Shown piece by piece: positions 32,393 to 44,376 of a DNA stretch of 64,000 nucleotides. The position numbers and the translations under genes were made by a program. The stretch is from an uncultured Candidatus Saccharibacteria bacterium (GTDB lineage: Bacteria > Patescibacteriota > Minisyncoccia > UBA6257 > 2-01-FULL-56-20): assembly GCA_964456235.1 (NCBI GenBank), contig CAYWDX010000001.1:125935-189934 (forward strand). Direction: 5' to 3'. Numbering within the stretch: position 1 is the first letter of the stretch; each line of letters starts with the position of its first letter. The notes under the pieces are model-generated. The model searched no databases, had not been told where the DNA came from, and saw nothing but the letters and a program-made list of their open reading frames with translations.

Positions 32393-33178
32393 ATGAAGGA
32401 GACGAAGGTCCTGATGGGCATGCCCGTCACGGTGGAAATTGTTGATGCGCAAGCGGACGTGAACGACGGCCGAGGTGCGGAAGACGCGATTCGCGCCGTC
32501 TTCGATTATTTCAATTACATTGATGAGAAATTCAGCACCTATAAAGATGCGAGCGAAATTGTGGCGATCAACCGCGGCGAACTTCCGCCAGAACAATGGA
32601 GCGAGGATATGAAAACGGTTTTTATTCTTGCGGAAAAGACCAAGATGCTCACCGATGGCTACTTCGATATCAAGATGCCGGACGGCAAGTACGATCCTTC
32701 AGGCATCGTGAAGGGTTGGGCGGTGTGGAATGCATCAGACATCATCACGAAGGCCGGCTTCAAACATTTTTATGTTGACGCCGGCGGCGACATTCAAACG
32801 AGCGGCATGAACGCCGAAGGGGAAAAATGGGTGGTCCACATTAAGAATCCGTGGAATAACGATGAAACCATGAAGGTGGTCTGCCTTTCGGGCGAAGGCA
32901 TCGCGACATCTGGAACCCATATCCGCGGCGATCACATCTACAATCCCCGCACGGGCGCCAAGGCGAGTGAAATCGCGAGCTTGACCGTGATCGGTCCGAA
33001 TGTCTATGAAGCTGATCGATTTGCGACGGGCGCGTTCGCGATGGGCAATAACGCAATCAGTTACATCGAAAATTTGCGCGACATGGCAAGTTTCCCTCTC
33101 GAGGGATATGCGATCGACAACAAGAAGATTGTTACGATGACGAACGGCTTCGCGAAGTATGTGGCCGAAGCGTCGTGA
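32393..33178 (+). CDS. ApbE-family FAD:protein FMN transferase-like protein
   Basis: ApbE-like motifs DPSGIVKGWAV and YVDAGGDI; 261 aa (shorter than typical ApbE). Confidence 0.65.
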   Translation: MKETKVLMGMPVTVEIVDAQADVNDGRGAEDAIRAVFDYFNYIDEKFSTYKDASEIVAINRGELPPEQWSEDMKTVFILAEKTKMLTDGYFDIKMPDGKYDPSGIVKGWAVWNASDIITKAGFKHFYVDAGGDIQTSGMNAEGEKWVVHIKNPWNNDETMKVVCLSGEGIATSGTHIRGDHIYNPRTGAKASEIASLTVIGPNVYEADRFATGAFAMGNNAISYIENLRDMASFPLEGYAIDNKKIVTMTNGFAKYVAEAS

Positions 33179-33668
33179 AATTTGCTGCCGGCTCCGCGGG
33201 AAGAATCCAATCGCCGAGCCATTTTAGAAAGGCTTCCCGCCGCGGCTCAAAAACAACTTCTTGAATGTGCATGCGCGGGTGCGCCTCGGGCGTGTATTCA
33301 TAGTGGCCGCGCAATTCGCCATCATCAAAAAGCCGCAAGTGGTATTGGTATTCCCATCCATCGAGGATGCGCAGGCTAAGCACTTCGCCATCGTCGCGCC
33401 ACGCGAAGAAATGATTGCCGAATCCTTTGTTCCCGATGTCCGTTAAGAATTTTTTAATATCCGCTCCTTCGCGCAGCCAGCCGAGCAAATATTCCTGCCG
33501 GCCAACGTGGTTCAACAAACCGACCTGCGAAAGCAGGTCACGAAAGAATGGGTTGAACGGCGAGTAAAGGCGCCAAAAGCCAAACTTGACACGATGCCAT
33601 GCGTCCCCCGTGAGAGGAATTTTTGATGCTGGAATCTTCGACTTGAGCTCTTCGGTAACCGCTTGCAT
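33132..33668 (-). CDS. hypothetical protein
   Basis: 178-aa ORF with no recognisable motifs; convergent 47-nt overlap with the apbE end; start uncertain. Confidence 0.4.
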   Translation of the reverse strand: MQAVTEELKSKIPASKIPLTGDAWHRVKFGFWRLYSPFNPFFRDLLSQVGLLNHVGRQEYLLGWLREGADIKKFLTDIGNKGFGNHFFAWRDDGEVLSLRILDGWEYQYHLRLFDDGELRGHYEYTPEAHPRMHIQEVVFEPRREAFLKWLGDWILPAEPAANFTTLRPHTSRSRSSS

Positions 33669-33712
33669 TAATCCTTATTATATCATCGCCGGCCGCCAAA
33701 AATCCAGCATTT

Positions 33713-34375
33713 TTATGCTGCGGCGTGATCAAATGCAATATCCCAAACTTTCCCGGCCACGTTCCGTGCGGGTCCATGATAGGGATAATGATGGAGATCA
33801 ATGAACGGCAGACTGTTGCATTCGATCACGCCGCAAACCTGTTCTTGCCACGGCTTCGCCATGTCTTCGATCATGAAGTCAACGCCGACGAGTGGGTCAT
33901 CGAGCACCTCGCCGATTTTTATGAACATCTTTTCGTTTTCGGGATGGATCATTGGAATTTCTGTTGTCGTCGCGCCGACGGCCCGGCTCACTTTTGGATG
34001 CAGTACCACCATCACTCCTTTTTTAGGGACGCTATTCAGCGAAAGATTTTGCTCCTTGAGCGTCGCGCGAACTTCATCGTCAACGACGATCATATGAAAA
34101 ATTGGCCCAGCGCGCAACGGATTTTTATTTTCATGCTCGATGAGCGTCTTGATGGCGTTGTTACCATCCCCCATCACATGCGGCGCCTCCCGCCGCATCA
34201 CGCCCACGATTTTCCCGCCGACCAGCGTGACGCGGAAGACAAAACCCGGGAGTTCCTGCTCCACGACGACGCGCGGGGAAATTTCTTTGGCTTTTTGAAA
34301 CGCCTTGGTGAGTTCGATCGCATTCGTAATGTGAAGATAGGTGTGGCGACTGCGCGACCCGAGCGTTGGCTTCAC
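33713..34375 (-). CDS. ATP-grasp ligase, C-terminal portion (ATP-binding and catalytic half)
   Basis: ISPRVVVEQELPGFVFRVTLVGGKIVGVMRR...GVDFMIED: ATP-grasp central and C-domain pattern; lacks the N-terminal half, which sits in the upstream ORF in a different frame. Confidence 0.6.
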   Translation of the reverse strand: MKPTLGSRSRHTYLHITNAIELTKAFQKAKEISPRVVVEQELPGFVFRVTLVGGKIVGVMRREAPHVMGDGNNAIKTLIEHENKNPLRAGPIFHMIVVDDEVRATLKEQNLSLNSVPKKGVMVVLHPKVSRAVGATTTEIPMIHPENEKMFIKIGEVLDDPLVGVDFMIEDMAKPWQEQVCGVIECNSLPFIDLHHYPYHGPARNVAGKVWDIAFDHAAA

Positions 34376-34452
34376 GATCGCGGCGGCTGGGGCGGCGGAT
34401 GGCGCAGCGGCCGGCCCCGGCGCGTTTTTAATTTTTATTTCATTAAAAATTT

Positions 34453-35031
34453 CTAAAGCCCCGGCGAGCGAGCGCTTCCGCCCTGCGGCACTGGGATCCC
34501 CGCCTTCTTAAATTTCGAAAGTATGATGCCCTTGTCATCCATCCAATTGAGCGCCGCTTCAGGGGCGTTCCGGGGACGCGGGAGACCGTCAAAGAAGCGC
34601 GTGTCGTCGCCGAGCGTCGCATAAAAAAGTTCGCGCGGGAGGCCGAAGGGGCGAAATTCCCGCATCAGAATCCCTCGGTGATTCGCTTCTTCCCGGAGCA
34701 CTCGCGCGCGCCAGGTATTTTCTTCATCGGGGTGCTCCATGATGCGGCCTAAGCCAAGGGCAGCCAGAATATTCAGGATTGACGGGGCCAGGCGGCCTGG
34801 TTCGAGCACGGCGATGAACGGGCGCACGGCTTGCCACAGGGCGTCGAGCGGCCGGCTGAAGTAATCAATAAAATAATCCAGCTCGATCGAAAGCCGCTCG
34901 GCGCGGTGCGAGACCGCGACCGGACCGCAATCAGCACATTCGATGCGCGCGTTCATGTTAGTTTGCGCGCCGCATGAGCTACATCGGATTTTTCGGCTGG
35001 AGCATACTCGCGTGATTCCCTTCCGTGTCAA
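34453..35031 (-). CDS. ATP-grasp ligase, N-terminal portion, with 4-Cys zinc-ribbon (possible frameshift split from the downstream ORF)
   Basis: CSSCGAQT...CADCGP zinc ribbon; ends ...DKGIILSKFKKAGIPVPQG, the typical entry to the ATP-grasp core that continues in ORF 33713..34375; the two are 77 nt apart and out of frame; an internal Met (MNARIECADCGP) is an alternative start that avoids overlap with the VOC gene. Confidence 0.5.
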   Translation of the reverse strand: MTRKGITRVCSSRKIRCSSCGAQTNMNARIECADCGPVAVSHRAERLSIELDYFIDYFSRPLDALWQAVRPFIAVLEPGRLAPSILNILAALGLGRIMEHPDEENTWRARVLREEANHRGILMREFRPFGLPRELFYATLGDDTRFFDGLPRPRNAPEAALNWMDDKGIILSKFKKAGIPVPQGGSARSPGL

Positions 35032-35392
35032 TGAACCCCGCGTAGAGTCCCACGCCCGGGATATCGTCAGGCTTGCCGGCGACCTGCATGCCGCCGAGCA
35101 CCTTGCCGCCCGCCGCAGTCACCCGCTTCATCGCCTCCTCAATGTTATCCACCGCAATCGTCACGCGCGTCATCTGATCCGGCTTCGTCTTGTCATAAAA
35201 TCCGCCGTTGATCTGCCCAGGATTTTTCACCATGCGGTTTTCATCGGTCTCGGCCGTCGTCACGACAACATAGTTCCCCATTTCGGGACCCAGCTGCTGC
35301 GACTTCCATCCAAATGCGTCCTCGTAAAATTTCATCATGCGCGCCTTGTCCTCCGCCGGCATTTCAAAATGCACCACAGGATTTGTTTTCAT
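34979..35392 (-). CDS. VOC-family (glyoxalase/bleomycin-resistance fold) protein
   Basis: 137 aa, paired beta-alpha-beta-beta-beta modules; VVHFEM...GNHASM pattern. Confidence 0.75.
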   Translation of the reverse strand: MKTNPVVHFEMPAEDKARMMKFYEDAFGWKSQQLGPEMGNYVVVTTAETDENRMVKNPGQINGGFYDKTKPDQMTRVTIAVDNIEEAMKRVTAAGGKVLGGMQVAGKPDDIPGVGLYAGFIDTEGNHASMLQPKNPM

Positions 35393-35457
35393 CGTAACGT
35401 TAATGATTTTTTAATAAGGTTTATTTGCGACGTTTTCTATTCTATCATAGGTGGGAT

Positions 35458-35488
35458 AGGTTTTCACCCCGGATATAGATTTTCACCC
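35458..35488 (+). promoter_or_regulatory. direct repeat AG[G/A]TTTTCACCC x2 (19-bp spacing) overlapping a -35 region; candidate response-regulator site
   Basis: aggttttcaccc at 35458-35469 and agattttcaccc at 35477-35488; TATATT -10 at 35501-35506 lies 7 nt before the ATG at 35513, suggesting a leaderless transcript. Confidence 0.3.
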
Positions 35489-35512
35489 TAAGCAACGCCC
35501 TATATTTCAAAC

Positions 35513-36799
35513 ATGAAGCATAAATTCTTATCGCTCACGCTCTTCATGATTACCATCCTCACGATGGCGACCAATACCTATGGGCCTCTTGCCGCGCAAA
35601 CGGCCTGGGCCCAGGCGACGCCTCCGCCGCCGGCCGGAATCAGCACGGCGGGCTCTCTTCAGGATCAGATTGATGCCAGCAATCAGCAGATTACGACGCT
35701 GAATCAGCAGATTGCGCAGTACCAGTCTGAACTCCAACAGATCGGGTCAGACAAGCGCACGCTCCAGGCGGCGATTAAATCGCTCGACCTCCAGCGCAGC
35801 ACGGTTGAGGCGCAGATCACGATCACCCAGCGCCAGATGGCGATCACACAATTGCAAGTGCAGCAACTTGGTGGCGAAATTACCGACACGCAACAGGCGA
35901 TCATGAACGACCAAAATTCTTTGGGCGCCTACATACGCGATCTTCAAAAAAATGAAAACATTCCCCTCTTGATCCAAGTGCTTTCCTCGAGCGACATCAC
36001 GCAGGCGTGGACGGATCTGAATGCAAACTTGCAGATGCAGGAATATGCGCAGAACGAAATGCAGGCGCTCCAGGTACAGGAGAAAAGTTTGGCGAACGCG
36101 AAGGCAAATTCGCAGGCGAAGCAACAGGTCCTTACGTCGCAACAAAAATCTCTCGCAACGCAACAGAAAACGCTCGCGCAAACCGTGCAGTCGAAGAATC
36201 AACTTCTCGCCGACACGAATGCGAAGGAATCAACGTACCAACAACTTCTTGCCGCGGCTGAGGCGGAGCTGAACAGTTTCTCTGCGTTCGTGCAGAATGC
36301 TGGTGGATCAAAATTACTTGCCAATCAAACGAATTGCGACGCCTGGGGCTGCTATTACAGTCAGCGCGATTCAGCATGGGGCGCGCAGGCGCTGAATGGC
36401 ACGCGCTACACGCTCGCGAGCGACGGCTGCTTGATCACCTCGATGGCGATGGTGCTCACGCACTACGGCCTGCGCGACGTGACGCCCGCGACCATCAACG
36501 GGAATCCGGCGAATTTCGCATCGTATTACCCGGCCTATCTTCTCTACACGATTGTGGTGGATGGCGTGACAGCGACGCGCAAGACGGCTTCACTCGATGC
36601 CACGCTCGCAACCGGAAATCCCGTCATCGTCGGCCTCCGGGCTTATGGCGGCACGCACTTTGTCGTACTCGTGAGCGGCGCCCGAGGCCACTATATTATG
36701 CGCGACCCCTACGTCGCCGGCGGCAAAGACATCAGCTTCACCGATCGCTACGCCGTCCGCAGCATCTTCAGTATTGCGAAAGTGGTGGTGGGGAGCTAG
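35513..36799 (+). CDS. secreted coiled-coil + C-terminal Cys/His peptidase (C39-like/CHAP-like) protein; PcsB-like putative peptidoglycan hydrolase
   Basis: Signal peptide; ~250 aa Gln/Leu-rich heptad coiled coil; C-terminal NCDAWGCYYSQRDSAWG...DGCLITSMAMVLTHYG...GGTHFVVLV resembles peptidase_C39-like/CHAP catalytic Cys and His regions. Confidence 0.7.
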   Translation: MKHKFLSLTLFMITILTMATNTYGPLAAQTAWAQATPPPPAGISTAGSLQDQIDASNQQITTLNQQIAQYQSELQQIGSDKRTLQAAIKSLDLQRSTVEAQITITQRQMAITQLQVQQLGGEITDTQQAIMNDQNSLGAYIRDLQKNENIPLLIQVLSSSDITQAWTDLNANLQMQEYAQNEMQALQVQEKSLANAKANSQAKQQVLTSQQKSLATQQKTLAQTVQSKNQLLADTNAKESTYQQLLAAAEAELNSFSAFVQNAGGSKLLANQTNCDAWGCYYSQRDSAWGAQALNGTRYTLASDGCLITSMAMVLTHYGLRDVTPATINGNPANFASYYPAYLLYTIVVDGVTATRKTASLDATLATGNPVIVGLRAYGGTHFVVLVSGARGHYIMRDPYVAGGKDISFTDRYAVRSIFSIAKVVVGS

Positions 36800-36818
36800 G
36801 GCTGATAAAAATCTTTTG

Positions 36819-36905
36819 CGGAAGGGGCGAGATTCGAACTCGCGGTACCATTTCTGGCACACGATCTTTCCAGGATCGCCAGTTAAACCACTCCTGCACC
36901 CTTCC
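36819..36905 (-). tRNA. tRNA-Ser (anticodon GGA)
   Basis: Sense GGAAGGGTGCAGGAGTGGTTTAACTGGCGATCCTGGAAAGATCGTGTGCCAGAAATGGTACCGCGAGTTCGAATCTCGCCCCTTCCG; long variable arm. Confidence 0.85.
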
Positions 36906-36949
36906 TTACTATTATTTTTTTCCTGCGAGTACTTTAGCACAAACGGTGC

Positions 36950-37864
36950 CTACTTTGAAAGCGCCTGGAGTGCGGCGATGCGTTCTTCGATCGGCGGGTG
37001 CGTCATAAAAAGCTTGTGCCACCAGGAGACGCCCTGGCCCTTGAACGGATTGTCGAGCCACATATGCGCGGTCGAATCTTTTGCAGAGCGCATGGGCGTT
37101 TGGTCGACGGCGATCTTTTGGAGGGCGGCGATGAGGCCTTCCGGATAGCGCGTGAGGAGGACGCCCGAGGCGTCCGCGAGCGCTTCGCGCCGGCGCGAAA
37201 TCGCGAGTTGGATCAGCATCGTGCCGATCGGCGCGAGGATCGACAGCACGATCGCCGCGATGAAGAAAATTTCTTGCGCTTCCCCGTTCTGCCCGCCACC
37301 GCGACGCCCGCCGCCTCCGAAGCCACCCCAGAATATGGAGCGGAGGAAGACGTCGGCAATCAACGAAATGATGCCTGCGAGGATGGCGGCGACGGTCGAA
37401 ACGAGGATGTCGCGATTTCCCACATGTGAAAGTTCGTGCGCAATCACGCCTTCAAGTTCGGTTTTATCGAGGCGCGCGAGCGCGCCCTGCGTTACGGCGA
37501 CGGCCGCGTGCTGCGGGCCACGCCCGGTGGCGAACGCGTTGATCTGCGCTTCGGGTGTCACGTAGATCGCAGGCATCGGAAGCCCCGCCGCGATCGTCAG
37601 GTTTTCAACAATATTATAGAGCGCGGGATTGTCGTGTTTTTCGATCGGCACCGCGCGAGCGAGCGAGAGCGCGATCGACGCCGAGGCGTAATAGCTGATC
37701 AGCGAATAAATAATGCTGAAAATGATCGCGAAGATGAGGAAGCTTGGATCGCCGTAGTAACCCGAAATCACCCAACCGATCGCGGCGAGTACGATAAAAA
37801 ACACGACAAACATGAGCCACGTCCGGCGCACATTCGACGCCTGGTACTGGTAAAGATTAGCCAT
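36950..37864 (-). CDS. htpX: membrane zinc metalloprotease HtpX (M48)
   Basis: HELSHVGNRD HExxH motif, multiple TM segments, Gly-rich loop. Confidence 0.9.
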   Translation of the reverse strand: MANLYQYQASNVRRTWLMFVVFFIVLAAIGWVISGYYGDPSFLIFAIIFSIIYSLISYYASASIALSLARAVPIEKHDNPALYNIVENLTIAAGLPMPAIYVTPEAQINAFATGRGPQHAAVAVTQGALARLDKTELEGVIAHELSHVGNRDILVSTVAAILAGIISLIADVFLRSIFWGGFGGGGRRGGGQNGEAQEIFFIAAIVLSILAPIGTMLIQLAISRRREALADASGVLLTRYPEGLIAALQKIAVDQTPMRSAKDSTAHMWLDNPFKGQGVSWWHKLFMTHPPIEERIAALQALSK

Positions 37865-37867
37865 CTG

Positions 37868-38413
37868 CTAGAATTTCACCGAAACCGCCTGTTTCTCCGC
37901 GTCCGAAAGATTGCCGAAAAATTCCATCGCCGTGAATCCCATCATGCGCGCAAATAAATTCGTTGGGAAAATTTGGATCTTCGTGTTCAGATCGCGCACC
38001 ATGCCATTGTAGAAGCGGCGGGCGGCTTGGATTTTGTCTTCGGTGTCGGTCAATTCGTTCTGTAAATTCAAAAAGTTTTCGTTCGCCTTGAGCTGCGGAT
38101 AATTTTCCGCAACCGCAAAGAGTGATTTCAACGCGCCGCTCAAAGCATCTTCCGCGCCGGCCTTCGCCGCGCCCGTCGCCTGCATCGCCCGCGATCGCGC
38201 CTGCGTCACTTTTTCAAAAACGCCCGACTCGTGCGCCATGTACCCCTTCACCGATTCAACGAGGTTCGGAATGAGGTCGTAGCGGCGCTTCAACTGCACG
38301 TCGATGTCGGACCACGCCTCCTGCGCCCGGTTGCGCGTGCGAACGAGGCCGTTATATGCGGCGATGAGCCATACGACGATGATGACGACTGCTGCGACTA
38401 TCCACGTGATCAT
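37868..38413 (-). CDS. lemA: LemA-family membrane protein
   Basis: N-terminal TM plus conserved LemA pattern NGLVRTRNRAQEAWSDIDVQLKRRYDLIPNLVESVKGY. Confidence 0.88.
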   Translation of the reverse strand: MITWIVAAVVIIVVWLIAAYNGLVRTRNRAQEAWSDIDVQLKRRYDLIPNLVESVKGYMAHESGVFEKVTQARSRAMQATGAAKAGAEDALSGALKSLFAVAENYPQLKANENFLNLQNELTDTEDKIQAARRFYNGMVRDLNTKIQIFPTNLFARMMGFTAMEFFGNLSDAEKQAVSVKF

Positions 38414-41996: not shown

Positions 41997-43469
41997 CTAT
42001 CGTACGAAGAGATAATCAGGATTGGTCACCTTTCCCGAAGCGAACTTGCCCAAATAAGTGCCGCTTGCGTCAAATATCTGGACGTTGTTGCTGGTATTAT
42101 CCGAAACATAGATCGTTCCATTTGCATCAACCGTCACGCCAGAGGTTCCCCTAAACTGTCCGGTACTCGTGCCATACGACCCGAATTTCATAAGGAAATT
42201 TCCACTCGAATCAAATTTCTGAACGCGATCCTGGTTACCGCTACCGCCGTCTGCGACATAAATATTGTTACCTGAATCGACGGCGAGGCCACGGATGTTA
42301 AGGAACTGTCCATCGCTCGAACCATATGAGCCGAACTGCGCGAGGTAGTTACCGCCAGAGTCAAACTTTTCAACCCGCAAATGTGAAATGTTCCCGCTGT
42401 CAACCGCATATACATTGCCACTTGAATCAACGCCGATGCCGGAAACACCGTTGAATTGGCCGTCGCCCGATCCTGAAGTGCCGAACTGAAGCACATAGTT
42501 TCCATTCGAATCGAATTTCTCTACCCGATGGTTCCCTCCATCGCCCGCATAGACATATCCATCGAGGCTAGTACCAATACCCAACTGGGACCCCCCTGCC
42601 GCGCTAAATTGGCCGTTCCCACTTCCTGACGACCCAGACTGGAGCAGATAGTTCCCATTTGAATCAAATTTCTGGATGCGGTGATTCCCTCCGTCTTGCA
42701 CCCAGATATTGCCGGTAGAATCCACCGTCACGCCCCACGCAAAGCTCAATTGGCCGTTCCCACTTCCTGAAGAACCGACGGTGGCGAGATAATTCCCGTT
42801 GTAATCAAATTTTTGGACGCGGCTAGCGCTGAAATCTGCGACCCACACGCACGGACCGCCGTTTGCGCATCCATAATCTTCCTTAATGAGCGTGAGTGAA
42901 GTGCCTTTCGCGTAGAGGAAAGGGATGGGACCGCCGCCGCCCGTTTCTTGTCCAGAGTATTTCACCGACTGTACATTTGCCGTAATTTCATAATTCGTCC
43001 CATCGGTCGCATAGGCGTAGTAAGAACCGGTCGAGGTCTGGTTTTTCGGGTCAACCGGGAGAAGTCCGATCGGTGAGCCGCCGGTCACTTTGGTGAGGTC
43101 AACTGGAATCCATCCCGTACCATCAACGTTGCGATAATTTTGCGAAGAAACACACCAGTAGGTTTGCCCAGCGGGAAGGGTAACCAAGCCGAGCGATGAA
43201 CAGGTGCTGGTCTGTGCACCGGAGAGCGTAGGATCGGGCACTGAAACGTAAATAGTGTTCGCGGCTCCCAGCGACGTGATGTTTTTGGCGAGCGGGAGGA
43301 CTGAATCCAGTTGGCTGATGTCAGCAATGCGCGTGCTGTCGTTCGCCTGGAGCGAAAGCTCGGACGGGTTGAGGAAATAAATGACGGTGAGCGCGCCAGC
43401 CGCGATGACCGCGATCACGATCAAAATTTCTGGCAACGTGAAACCGCGCCGGCGAATAATATTCTTCAT
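41997..43469 (-). CDS. type IV pilin-like protein fused to C-terminal NHL-repeat beta-propeller domain
   Basis: N-terminus MKNIIRRRGFTLPEILIVIAVIAAGAL (G|FTLPE prepilin motif); first ~190 aa resemble the pilA product (...TDGTNYEITANVQSVKYSG...AKGTSLTL); then ~6 NHL repeats (SGSGNGQF.....GV.VDS.GNIYV.D..N.R.QKFD). Confidence 0.75.
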   Translation of the reverse strand: MKNIIRRRGFTLPEILIVIAVIAAGALTVIYFLNPSELSLQANDSTRIADISQLDSVLPLAKNITSLGAANTIYVSVPDPTLSGAQTSTCSSLGLVTLPAGQTYWCVSSQNYRNVDGTGWIPVDLTKVTGGSPIGLLPVDPKNQTSTGSYYAYATDGTNYEITANVQSVKYSGQETGGGGPIPFLYAKGTSLTLIKEDYGCANGGPCVWVADFSASRVQKFDYNGNYLATVGSSGSGNGQLSFAWGVTVDSTGNIWVQDGGNHRIQKFDSNGNYLLQSGSSGSGNGQFSAAGGSQLGIGTSLDGYVYAGDGGNHRVEKFDSNGNYVLQFGTSGSGDGQFNGVSGIGVDSSGNVYAVDSGNISHLRVEKFDSGGNYLAQFGSYGSSDGQFLNIRGLAVDSGNNIYVADGGSGNQDRVQKFDSSGNFLMKFGSYGTSTGQFRGTSGVTVDANGTIYVSDNTSNNVQIFDASGTYLGKFASGKVTNPDYLFVR

Positions 43470-43527: not shown

Positions 43528-44376
43528 CTATTTCAACGCCGCATCAATCACCTGCGCGAAATCGGCGTAGGGTTGCGCGCCGAGAACCGATGTTCCATTC
43601 ACGAAAAACGATGGCGTAGAATTGATTCCTGCTGCGGTGGCAGCCGCTCTCTCCTGTGCGACGAGCGACGCATTTTTATTCGTGTCGACACAGCTCGTGA
43701 AGGTCGTCATATTCAATCCCAAACCCTGGGCGAGCTTTACGAAGAGCGCCCGGTTATAGAAACCGTCGTTTTCCCCGCCCCCCTTCTGTTCATCACCCAC
43801 CTTGGCGGCGTAGAGCGCGTCGTGATATGGCCACAACTTGCCCTGATCGTTTGCGCATTCTGCTGCCTGCGCCGCCGCCGTTGATTCCGGCCCCAGGAAC
43901 GGGAAATTGCGGAACACTATTTTCACTTTTCCGCTGTTCACGTAATTCGCGATGATCTGCGGCTCCGTTTGCGAAAAGAATTGCGCGCAGAACGGGCACT
44001 GGTAATCGCCGTATTCGATGATCGTGACCGGCGCATTTTGTGCTCCGAGAATGGCGTCGCGCGCGCCGAGTTTCATGATCGCCTCGTTCGTTGCAAGAGC
44101 GCCCGCGCCTGCGCCGTTGCCGCCGCTGGGCGTCACGTTCGGGCGATACATCGTAGAAAAAACGAGCGCTCCGCCGATCACGGCGGCGGCAACTAAAACA
44201 CTGATAGCGAGAAAACGGTCGCGGGGCGCCTCGATCGGATGCGCCGGGTGCGAAGGCATCACCGGACCCATATTTTCGTGATTCCGCATTTCGTCCATGA
44301 AACCAGCATAGCACACCGGCGCTGTTCTATAATGAAAGGCAATGCCGATCGCAACTTCCCTTGCCCATTGGCTCAT
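43528..44376 (-). CDS. DsbA-family thiol:disulfide oxidoreductase (membrane-anchored)
   Basis: YQCPFCAQFF CxxC active site in a thioredoxin fold; N-terminal TM. Confidence 0.85.
   Translation of the reverse strand: MSQWAREVAIGIAFHYRTAPVCYAGFMDEMRNHENMGPVMPSHPAHPIEAPRDRFLAISVLVAAAVIGGALVFSTMYRPNVTPSGGNGAGAGALATNEAIMKLGARDAILGAQNAPVTIIEYGDYQCPFCAQFFSQTEPQIIANYVNSGKVKIVFRNFPFLGPESTAAAQAAECANDQGKLWPYHDALYAAKVGDEQKGGGENDGFYNRALFVKLAQGLGLNMTTFTSCVDTNKNASLVAQERAAATAAGINSTPSFFVNGTSVLGAQPYADFAQVIDAALK

Follow-up and report, generated by a model that had tools for sequence, protein, structure and literature searches.

A predicted exported hydrolase of Patescibacteria that combines an EnvC/PcsB-type coiled coil with a C39_2-type catalytic domain and is putatively controlled by FtsEX

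INTRODUCTION

Three catalytic solutions are known on the FtsEX machine: a CHAP domain in PcsB, an NlpC/P60 domain in CwlO and RipC, and a dead, amidase-activating LytM domain in EnvC. Here we describe a gene at positions 35513–36799 of a 64-kb stretch of DNA from an uncultured, ultrasmall patescibacterium of the CPR (contig CAYWDX010000001.1; the whole stretch is called the window below) whose product combines a signal peptide, a two-helix hairpin of ∼220 residues that shares homology with the coiled coil by which EnvC and PcsB dock on FtsX, and a papain-like domain of the Peptidase_C39_2 type with an invariant Gln-Cys-His-Asp set. Our preferred reading, which we hold to be probable, is that the product is exported by Sec and hydrolyzes peptidoglycan, that it follows the EnvC/PcsB/CwlO/RipC design and is putatively controlled by FtsEX, and that its gene is expressed from a leaderless promoter with a −10 element only.

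Among the closest described systems, PcsB of Streptococcus pneumoniae (4cgk) has an activity that depends on FtsEX (10.1101/2025.05.23.655736; PMC11627006), and the same dependence has been reported for CwlO of Bacillus subtilis and for RipC of Mycobacterium and Corynebacterium (PMC10694151). The coiled coil of EnvC, which occurs in Escherichia coli and other proteobacteria (6tpi, 8hd0), binds the periplasmic domains of FtsX (PMC7668044, PMC10214136). EnvC itself has a LytM domain without catalytic activity at its C-terminus and works through separate amidases that it activates. RipA, in contrast, is controlled in Corynebacteriales by SteA/SteB and not by FtsEX (PMC9897464).

The catalytic domain of the window protein belongs to a different setting. 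A 2023 classification of papain-like peptidases describes Peptidase_C39_2 (PF13529; 3erv, YvpB-like) as a group of single-domain peptidases of unknown specificity (PMC10318531). Peptidase_C39_2 has been catalogued as a lysin catalytic domain (PMC8223927), and a C39-like domain is present in LysA of mycobacteriophages (PMC3314691); phages thus direct relatives of the domain at cell walls. Classical C39 domains, as in the PCAT/ComA exporters, are fused to ABC (ATP-binding cassette) exporters and cut double-glycine leaders. The pseudomurein endoisopeptidases PeiR, PeiW, and PeiP (MEROPS C71; 8z4h) are cysteine peptidases that cut a cross-link of a cell-wall polymer (PMC10318531). In the literature searched, we found no description of a fusion between CC_PcsB and Peptidase_C39_2 or of its ftsEX operons.

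RESULTS

Export signal and coiled-coil hairpin

The coding sequence begins with an ATG at 35513, and a start farther upstream is impossible because no other start codon lies between an in-frame TAA at 35489–35491 and this ATG. The original prediction for this locus, which a model had made by reading the letters of the window, listed the open reading frame (ORF), a signal peptide, a coiled coil, C-terminal peptidase motifs, an upstream direct repeat, and a −10 box, and each of these elements was found where the model had placed it. The gene and the N-terminal features of its product are as follows.

35513..36799, plus strand: coding sequence of the predicted exported coiled-coil and C39_2-like cysteine hydrolase (428 aa plus stop, ATG start)
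35513..35611, plus strand: signal peptide or signal anchor, residues 1–33 (MKHK, hydrophobic core, AWA|QA), judged from the sequence
35651..35953, plus strand: coiled-coil helix 1, residues 47–147, from the full-length AlphaFold2 (AF2) model; collinear with the family, which matches EnvC and PcsB
35954..35995, plus strand: hairpin tip, residues 148–161 (NIPLLIQVLSSSDI), after a conserved LQK (144–146)
35996..36304, plus strand: coiled-coil helix 2, residues 162–264, from models; collinear with the family

The N-terminus (MKHK, then FLSLTLFMITILTMA, and at its end AWA|QA) has a hydrophobic core of 15 residues and, judged by eye, reads as a Sec signal; an export signal is a hallmark that the window protein would share with the EnvC/PcsB/CwlO/RipC class. 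All homologues have an equivalent N-terminus with an AxA-like motif at its end. Residues 45–265 contain 20% Gln, 12% Ala, and 11% Leu. The full-length AF2 model, built with 40 close homologues, is poor (predicted local distance difference test score, pLDDT, of 58) and was used for the helix boundaries only. As a separate observation, the heptad periodicity is visible in the DNA, where a 21-nt direct repeat inside the coding region at 35681–35722 (AATCAGCAGATTACGACGCTG and AATCAGCAGATTGCGCAGTAC) encodes NQQITTL and NQQIAQY.

Three profiles were used to place the hairpin: A1 represents the window's own subfamily, A3 the wider family, and A4 the wider family without sequences of the window subfamily. 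The best sequence match for the hairpin is EnvC (8hd0_E), which the A3 profile finds with an E-value of 1.6e-19 over the whole coiled coil including the tip. Further A3 matches are the EnvC-type chains 8tzk (1.2e-15) and 8i6o (3e-9), PcsB 4cgk (1.6e-8), and RipA; generic, unrelated coiled coils score at ∼1e-6 or worse. The matches are kept by the A4 profile (6e-18 for EnvC and 6.7e-8 for PcsB).

The window subfamily is joined to this wider family by a profile–profile comparison of A1 with A4 in hhalign (probability 100%, E-value 2.6e-93), which is collinear over residues 63–427 and free of gaps in the coiled coil. BLASTP of the window protein against P0127, a relative linked to ftsEX, gives 36% identity over residues 36–424 (E-value 1e-85). 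Distant family members exceed the gathering threshold of the Pfam model CC_PcsB, the window protein alone gives no CC_PcsB match in the Pfam scan, and an NCBIfam scan of the protein yields sub-threshold coiled-coil noise only. The CC_PcsB/EnvC family motif YK...LL.S.sF.d aligns with residues 143–170, and the tip motif in the window subfamily reads LQK...LL.Q.LSS compared with YK...LL.S.sF elsewhere in the family. These comparisons point to a homology of the hairpin with the EnvC/PcsB coiled coil that is transitive but strong.

A C39_2-type catalytic domain

The C-terminal region contains the following features.

36305..36796, plus strand: linker with invariant Cys275/Cys280, then a papain-like domain of the Peptidase_C39_2 type, residues 265–428 (alignment, model)
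36362..36364, plus strand: codon of Gln284, predicted oxyanion-hole residue, invariant (alignment)
36428..36430, plus strand: codon of Cys306, predicted nucleophile at the N-terminus of the central helix, invariant (alignment, model)
36656..36658, plus strand: codon of His382, predicted general base on a β-strand, invariant (alignment, model)
36704..36706, plus strand: codon of Asp398, predicted third catalytic residue just past the next strand, invariant within a DP pair (alignment, model)

Both motifs on which the peptidase assignment had been based, DGCLITSMAMVLTHYG and GTHFVVLV, are present. In an alignment of 136 diverse sequences with identities down to 25%, the residues Gln284, Gly305-Cys306, Pro325, His382, and Asp398-Pro399 are invariant, and they are likewise invariant in A4. 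An AF2 model of residues 240–428 built from this alignment has a pLDDT of 96.9 and a predicted template modeling score (pTM) of 0.93. The model places Cys306 at the start of the central helix, His382 within a strand, and Asp398 just behind the strand that comes next, as in papain-like enzymes. The Gln, Cys, His, and Asp/Asn positions are those that are canonical for the Peptidase_C39_2 fold. The Cys-His dyad for which the original prediction had proposed a check by structure prediction is thus borne out in the model.

Homologues carry a precomputed PF13529 label, distant relatives exceed the PF13529 threshold with scores of 26–39 bits, and some relatives have weak matches to PF03412 (Peptidase_C39). 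The top structural match of the domain is a cell-wall cross-link peptidase. Its nearest viral structures in BFVD belong to a tail tape-measure protein and to phage proteins with the name peptidase, lysozyme, or endolysin.

The original prediction had described the protein as PcsB-like, with a C-terminal domain of either the C39 or the CHAP kind. The architecture stands: like PcsB, the protein has a signal peptide, a long coiled coil, and a C-terminal Cys/His domain, here a putative peptidoglycan hydrolase, and the resemblance is strengthened to homology by the profile matches to EnvC, PcsB, and RipA, by the CC_PcsB matches of relatives, and by ftsE-ftsX-gene operons in sister clades. The CHAP alternative does not stand, since the window protein scores 9.7 bits on the NCBIfam PcsB model against a cut-off of 450 bits, and the modeled head is a C39_2-type papain-like enzyme.

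The protein also differs from the other known systems. With CwlO, RipC, and RipA it shares a coiled coil joined to an endopeptidase of the papain superfamily, but its catalytic domain is not of the NlpC/P60 type. Unlike EnvC, it has an intact catalytic set and is therefore presumably a hydrolase itself. It is not a C39 protein proper, as its domain lies C-terminal to a coiled coil and no ABC exporter is fused or adjacent. Peptidase_C39_2 has been described as a single-domain family, whereas here the domain is joined to a coiled coil of the EnvC/PcsB type and, in sister clades, is encoded in an ftsEX operon. PeiR, PeiW, and PeiP are only 14% identical and are archaeal or phage proteins that act on pseudomurein. 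They lack a coiled coil, and their accessory domains are of other kinds. The window protein is not a strict member of the PcsB, CwlO, RipC, or EnvC families, as its catalytic domain is a different one.

The linker residues Cys275 and Cys280 are missing from some distant members and are thus not catalytic. They probably form a disulfide; a DsbA-like protein is encoded in the window at 43528–44376.

Two side observations concern the use of this domain by phages. The 1090-aa protein P0200, which is perhaps a tail tape-measure protein of a phage, ends in the same C39_2-type domain, and the best viral structural match (BFVD A0A8S5TG17_3) is a tail tape-measure protein. Hence, phages, possibly including phages of Patescibacteria, appear to use a C39_2-type head as a wall-piercing domain.

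Size and conservation of the family

A word-indexed search returned more than 750 relatives, of which the closest 120 are 59%–71% identical to the window protein, and relatives are contained in 336 GTDB species. An exhaustive search with the C-terminal domain gave 645 clusters at 50% identity, most of them proteins of ∼400 aa with the domain at the C-terminus. The taxon labels of the homologues are Paceibacterota, Parcubacteria, or Patescibacteria. Annotation pipelines already name them “C39 family peptidase” or “CwlO-like,” and many JGI entries read “peptidoglycan hydrolase CwlO-like protein.” Strong conservation across hundreds of species fits a housekeeping role for the predicted enzyme.

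Linkage to ftsEX in sister clades

Seven of the nine distant members examined (P0224, P0131, P0127, P0126/P0271, P0130, P0134, and P0135) are encoded in the order ftsE, ftsX, gene, on one strand and with gaps of −4 to +58 nt. The start of the hydrolase gene at this distance from the ftsX stop codon suggests translational coupling. The remaining two members (P0187 and P0275) are not linked to ftsEX. The operons lie at the following positions in loci of sister clades, and prfB is usually found one or two genes upstream.

ftsE-ftsX-(coiled coil plus C39_2) operons, sister Patescibacteria clades: L202:2767-5796, L204:977-3844, L209:4282-7260, L211:1421-4258, L212:2437-5263, L213:2200-5242, L214:1070-3769

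FtsE and FtsX have been reported in other Patescibacteria (PMC12592800, PMC11809585), and a profile search for FtsX gave 3740 matches, with thousands of Patescibacteria-labeled homologues. No paper on FtsX in Paceibacteria specifically was found in the literature searched. The ftsEX operons, together with the EnvC/PcsB-type coiled coil, provide the strongest evidence that this family may be the cognate FtsEX hydrolase of Patescibacteria.

Within the window subfamily the gene has become stand-alone, in contrast to the sister clades, where it comes third in an operon after ftsE and ftsX. Its neighborhood and promoter were compared across 78 homologous loci, and a set of 80 related loci served for tblastn and for counts of gene starts. 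The tblastn searches with seven FtsX sequences of Patescibacteria found no match in the window or in the 80 loci, and no ABC ATPase is encoded in the window. ABC ATPases do occur near subfamily genes at L003, L019, and L051, where they are of the MacB/LolD or DrrA type and fall below the FtsE cut-off; an ABC ATPase at L215 is part of a fused exporter. None of these candidates was accepted as FtsE. The 78 loci have no conserved neighbor, the commonest being gltX (11 loci), murG (5 loci), and a Mur ligase (5 loci).

A separate observation was made at L207 (442-5028), which encodes P0275 and probably belongs to a bacterium outside the Patescibacteria. There, genes for an 812-aa ABC_tran-GAF-HisKA-HATPase protein and for an OmpR-type response regulator come after the hydrolase gene in the same orientation. 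This is the sole hint of a two-component link within the family.

A leaderless start that is ordinary for the genome

The region upstream of the gene contains the following elements.

35456..35469, plus strand: first copy of the direct repeat, ATAGGTTTTCACCC; GTGAAA on its opposite strand is the −35-like hexamer of a divergent promoter-like site
35475..35488, plus strand: second copy of the direct repeat (copy 2), ATAGATTTTCACCC, spanning −38 to −25 as counted from the ATG
35501..35506, plus strand: −10 hexamer TATATT, ending 6 nt before the ATG; same geometry in homologues
35439..35467, minus strand: promoter-like site (GTGAAA, 17-nt spacer, TG-extended TAGAAT); a consensus match only, not enriched over shuffles

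The original prediction had noted a TATATT hexamer 7 nt before the ATG, with no Shine–Dalgarno (SD) sequence, and had proposed a leaderless mRNA. The hexamer is present and no SD-like sequence precedes 35513, but the distance to the ATG is 6 nt. With this spacing, the 5′ end of the transcript would fall at or next to the start codon.

Three comparisons support a leaderless start. Upstream of the 78 homologues, strong TATAAT-like boxes (in many cases TGGTATAAT) that end 6–7 nt before the start are sharply overrepresented, and an SD-like sequence is found in only six of the 78. Among 58 genes of the window, 16 have a box that agrees with the consensus at ≥5/6 positions and ends 6–8 nt from the start (0.37 expected), and three have an SD-like sequence. 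Such a box precedes 99 of 727 genes in the 80 related loci, compared with 5.3 expected and with a peak at 6 nt, and 82 of the 727 genes have an SD-like sequence. Hence, the leaderless start of the gene is supported, but it would be ordinary for this genome and lineage. In the sister clades, the gene is instead closely tied to ftsX within an operon. Further leaderless-type starts in the window include those at 281, 8944 (minus strand), 33668 (minus strand), 38413 (minus strand), 43469 (minus strand), and 47966; others occur in the related loci L002–L081, and the box is often TGnTATAAT. We found no paper on leaderless genes in Patescibacteria in the literature searched.

Promoters in the window generally have no recognizable −35 element, and no common one is visible. 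A promoter scan found solely the minus-strand site at 35439–35467, which could serve the divergent glyoxalase-family gene.

The upstream direct repeat

A 12-nt direct repeat with a 19-bp period had been described upstream of the gene. The repeat and its period were recovered, and its length is 14 nt: the two copies conform to ATAG[G/A]TTTTCACCC, are identical at 13 of 14 positions, and lie 19 bp apart from start to start. This is the one direct repeat of the 120-bp intergenic region, which contains no inverted repeat and for which Tandem Repeats Finder reported nothing. The exact 9-mer TTTTCACCC occurs in the 64 kb only at these two sites, and by eye it does not fit the DnaA box TTWTNCACA. Pairs of 14-mers with at most one mismatch and 14–40 nt apart number four in the window compared with 0.3 in shuffled sequences. 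Two more near-perfect 14-nt direct repeats emerged from the same count, at ∼6504 (period 21) and ∼10617 (distance 40).

The repeat is real and improbable by chance, but nothing ties it to regulation. It is missing from all 78 homologous promoters, where the original prediction had looked to conservation as a check on a regulatory role; because these homologues are at most 71% identical in protein, their promoters are too diverged to make the test a fair one. A metagenome scan for two copies of the 9-mer separated by 10 nt (TTTTCACCC-N10-TTTTCACCC) listed 120 matches, all of them unrelated tandem repeats without similarity to the window.

The two copies might nevertheless form a tandem operator for a regulator, either a response regulator or an AraC/XylS-like protein, of this gene or of the divergent one. 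In favor of such an operator are the improbability of the repeat by chance, its place as the sole repeat of the intergenic region, and the center of the pair near −41 of the predicted transcript start, which is the classical position of a class II activator. The family member at L207 that precedes a histidine kinase and an OmpR-type regulator points the same way. Against these points stand the absence of the repeat from the homologous promoters and of any further copy in the 64 kb beyond chance. Moreover, promoters of this genome generally lack a −35 element, so that an activator is not specially needed here and an overlap of the repeat with the −35 region carries no weight. One copy may be the −35-like element of the divergent promoter and the other, copy 2, could be a local duplication.

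The particular form of this idea that had been put forward is not supported. WalRK controls pcsB, and the repeat had been likened to a tandem site of this kind. The WalR consensus is TGTWAH-N5-TGTWAH with an 11-bp period; the repeat does not fit this sequence, and its 19-bp period departs from the 10–11 bp of WalR/OmpR-type tandem sites. No WalRK-like site or system was seen in the window. In addition, none of 10 ORFs of 206–266 aa that were scanned singly encodes a response regulator, and none appears in the family lists of the other scanned ORFs of the window. We consider an operator function of the repeat to be unlikely.

Proposed mechanism and alternatives

By analogy with the characterized systems, the protein probably works like the direct FtsEX-coupled hydrolases PcsB, CwlO, and RipC, with a coiled coil that is common to EnvC as well. 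The tip of the hairpin would dock on the extracellular domains of FtsX, as its characterized relatives suggest (PMC7668044, PMC10214136, PMC10694151, PMC11627006). Through the coiled coil, the enzyme would remain controlled by a partner in the membrane, most likely the ABC-type mechanotransmitter FtsEX. A conformational change of FtsEX driven by cytoplasmic ATP would then release or position the head, whose Cys306 and His382 are predicted from context to act on murein when the septum is split or the wall remodeled, by hydrolyzing a peptide or amide bond of the stem peptides or of the cross-links. The gene would be transcribed from its −10-only promoter as a leaderless mRNA, as is standard for this genome. 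The tandem 14-nt repeat lies outside what this model explains.

Several observations weigh against FtsEX control or against the assignment of the enzyme. No ftsE or ftsX is encoded in the 64-kb window, within ∼6 kb of the gene in the 78 subfamily loci, or within 10 kb of the gene in one complete chromosome. The window protein finds nothing relevant among Protein Data Bank (PDB) sequences, and the A1 profile has no PDB match, so EnvC and PcsB are not reached directly. Scores of coiled-coil profiles may be inflated by shared periodicity. The head of the window protein scores 23.3 bits on PF13529 (E-value 1e-4) against a gathering threshold of 24 bits, and Foldseek comparison with the PDB gives weak matches to C39-like domains (E-value ∼3e-3; template modeling score ∼0.4, a moderate similarity). 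Furthermore, no C39_2 protein with a demonstrated peptidoglycan substrate was found in the literature searched.

Some of these observations would be accommodated if the protein were a hydrolase of the cell's own wall under a partner other than FtsEX, or one regulated only by expression and autoinhibition. The YK of the tip motif has become LQK in the subfamily, so the partner may be a different one as well. The divergence of the subfamily coiled coil and the lack of ftsEX linkage in all 78 loci and in two of nine distant members are consistent with this possibility, and control of a coiled-coil hydrolase without FtsEX has a precedent in RipA and SteA/SteB (PMC9897464). However, the genes pcsB, cwlO, and envC are not adjacent to ftsEX, and since an unlinked gene is the rule for characterized FtsEX-dependent hydrolases, the missing linkage says little. 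No conserved gene for an alternative partner adjoins the hydrolase gene, as even its commonest neighbor, gltX, is present in only 11 of the 78 loci. We regard this reading as quite unlikely.

It is very unlikely, in our estimate, that the enzyme is instead a lysin that an episymbiont secretes or displays to open the wall of its host at the contact site, with the coiled coil as a spacer or stalk and not as a receiver of FtsEX. Patescibacteria are largely host-dependent (PMC8080830, PMC11809585), the possible tape-measure protein P0200 has the domain at its C-terminus, and the gene of the window subfamily is no longer linked to ftsEX. Nevertheless, the coiled coil belongs to the EnvC/PcsB type in particular, orthologues of sister clades reside within ftsEX operons, and the indel-free length between the subfamilies argues that the docking geometry has been kept. 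The very high conservation across hundreds of species would also be unusual for a weapon of host interaction.

A more elaborate scenario, which strikes us as highly improbable, is that Patescibacteria of the Paceibacteria type detached the hydrolase from the ftsEX operon, remodeled its tip, and added a leaderless promoter with a new tandem 14-nt control element, and that the enzyme now works without FtsEX and is possibly turned on the host wall at the episymbiotic contact rather than, or besides, on the cell's own septum. Finally, a protease that processes a secreted or surface protein (a pilin, adhesin, or toxin precursor) in the manner of classical C39 leader-peptide cutters would agree with Peptidase_C39_2 and Peptidase_C39 as the closest Pfam families and with the unknown substrate of C39_2 (PMC10318531), but it is the least credible reading given the absence of any fused or linked ABC exporter of the bacteriocin type, an N-terminal module and operon context of cell-wall hydrolase control, a top structural match that cuts cell-wall cross-links, and viral relatives among tape-measure, peptidase, lysozyme, and endolysin proteins.

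Genomic neighborhood

The neighbor on the 5′ side of the hydrolase gene is divergent and of the glyoxalase family (34979–35392, minus strand). On the 3′ side, a convergent gene for tRNA-Ser(GGA) (36818–36905, minus strand) begins 18 nt past the stop codon. No intrinsic terminator was predicted anywhere in 35200–37000, including the interval between the hydrolase gene and tRNA-Ser. Genes for an M48 peptidase and LemA lie beyond the tRNA, and other genes of the window include gyrB, groES/EL, type IV pilus genes, and sugar-nucleotide genes.

Genes for LemA and an M48 (HtpX-like) peptidase are found near the hydrolase gene both in the window (36950–38413) and at the distant locus L202 (10145–12248). 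This proximity may be a remnant of a common gene order or may reflect a functional neighborhood of envelope stress.

Two further observations concern other parts of the window. A 490-aa protein encoded at 41997–43469 (minus strand) begins with a type IV pilin-like methylation motif that is followed by NHL β-propeller repeats. It is unusually large for a pilin-like protein and is perhaps an adhesin of the pilus tip. Three successive ORFs at 33132–35031 have no Pfam or NCBIfam match (33132–33668, minus strand; 33725–34456, plus strand; 34453–35031, minus strand). The plus-strand ORF among them competes with an overlapping minus-strand ORF at 33713–34375, and it is the latter that is called on the Logan contig.

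DISCUSSION

As annotation pipelines already apply names such as “C39 family peptidase” and “CwlO-like” to homologues of the window protein, the advance is incremental and no new principle is involved. If the proposed assignment is true, however, Peptidase_C39_2 would be a fourth head on the FtsEX machine, next to the CHAP, NlpC/P60, and LytM domains. The fusion to a coiled coil and the conserved ftsE-ftsX-gene operons would then give a large Pfam family without a known substrate its first strong functional context. For the Patescibacteria, a huge and mostly uncultured radiation whose division is poorly understood, the assignment would name the probable enzyme that splits the septum.

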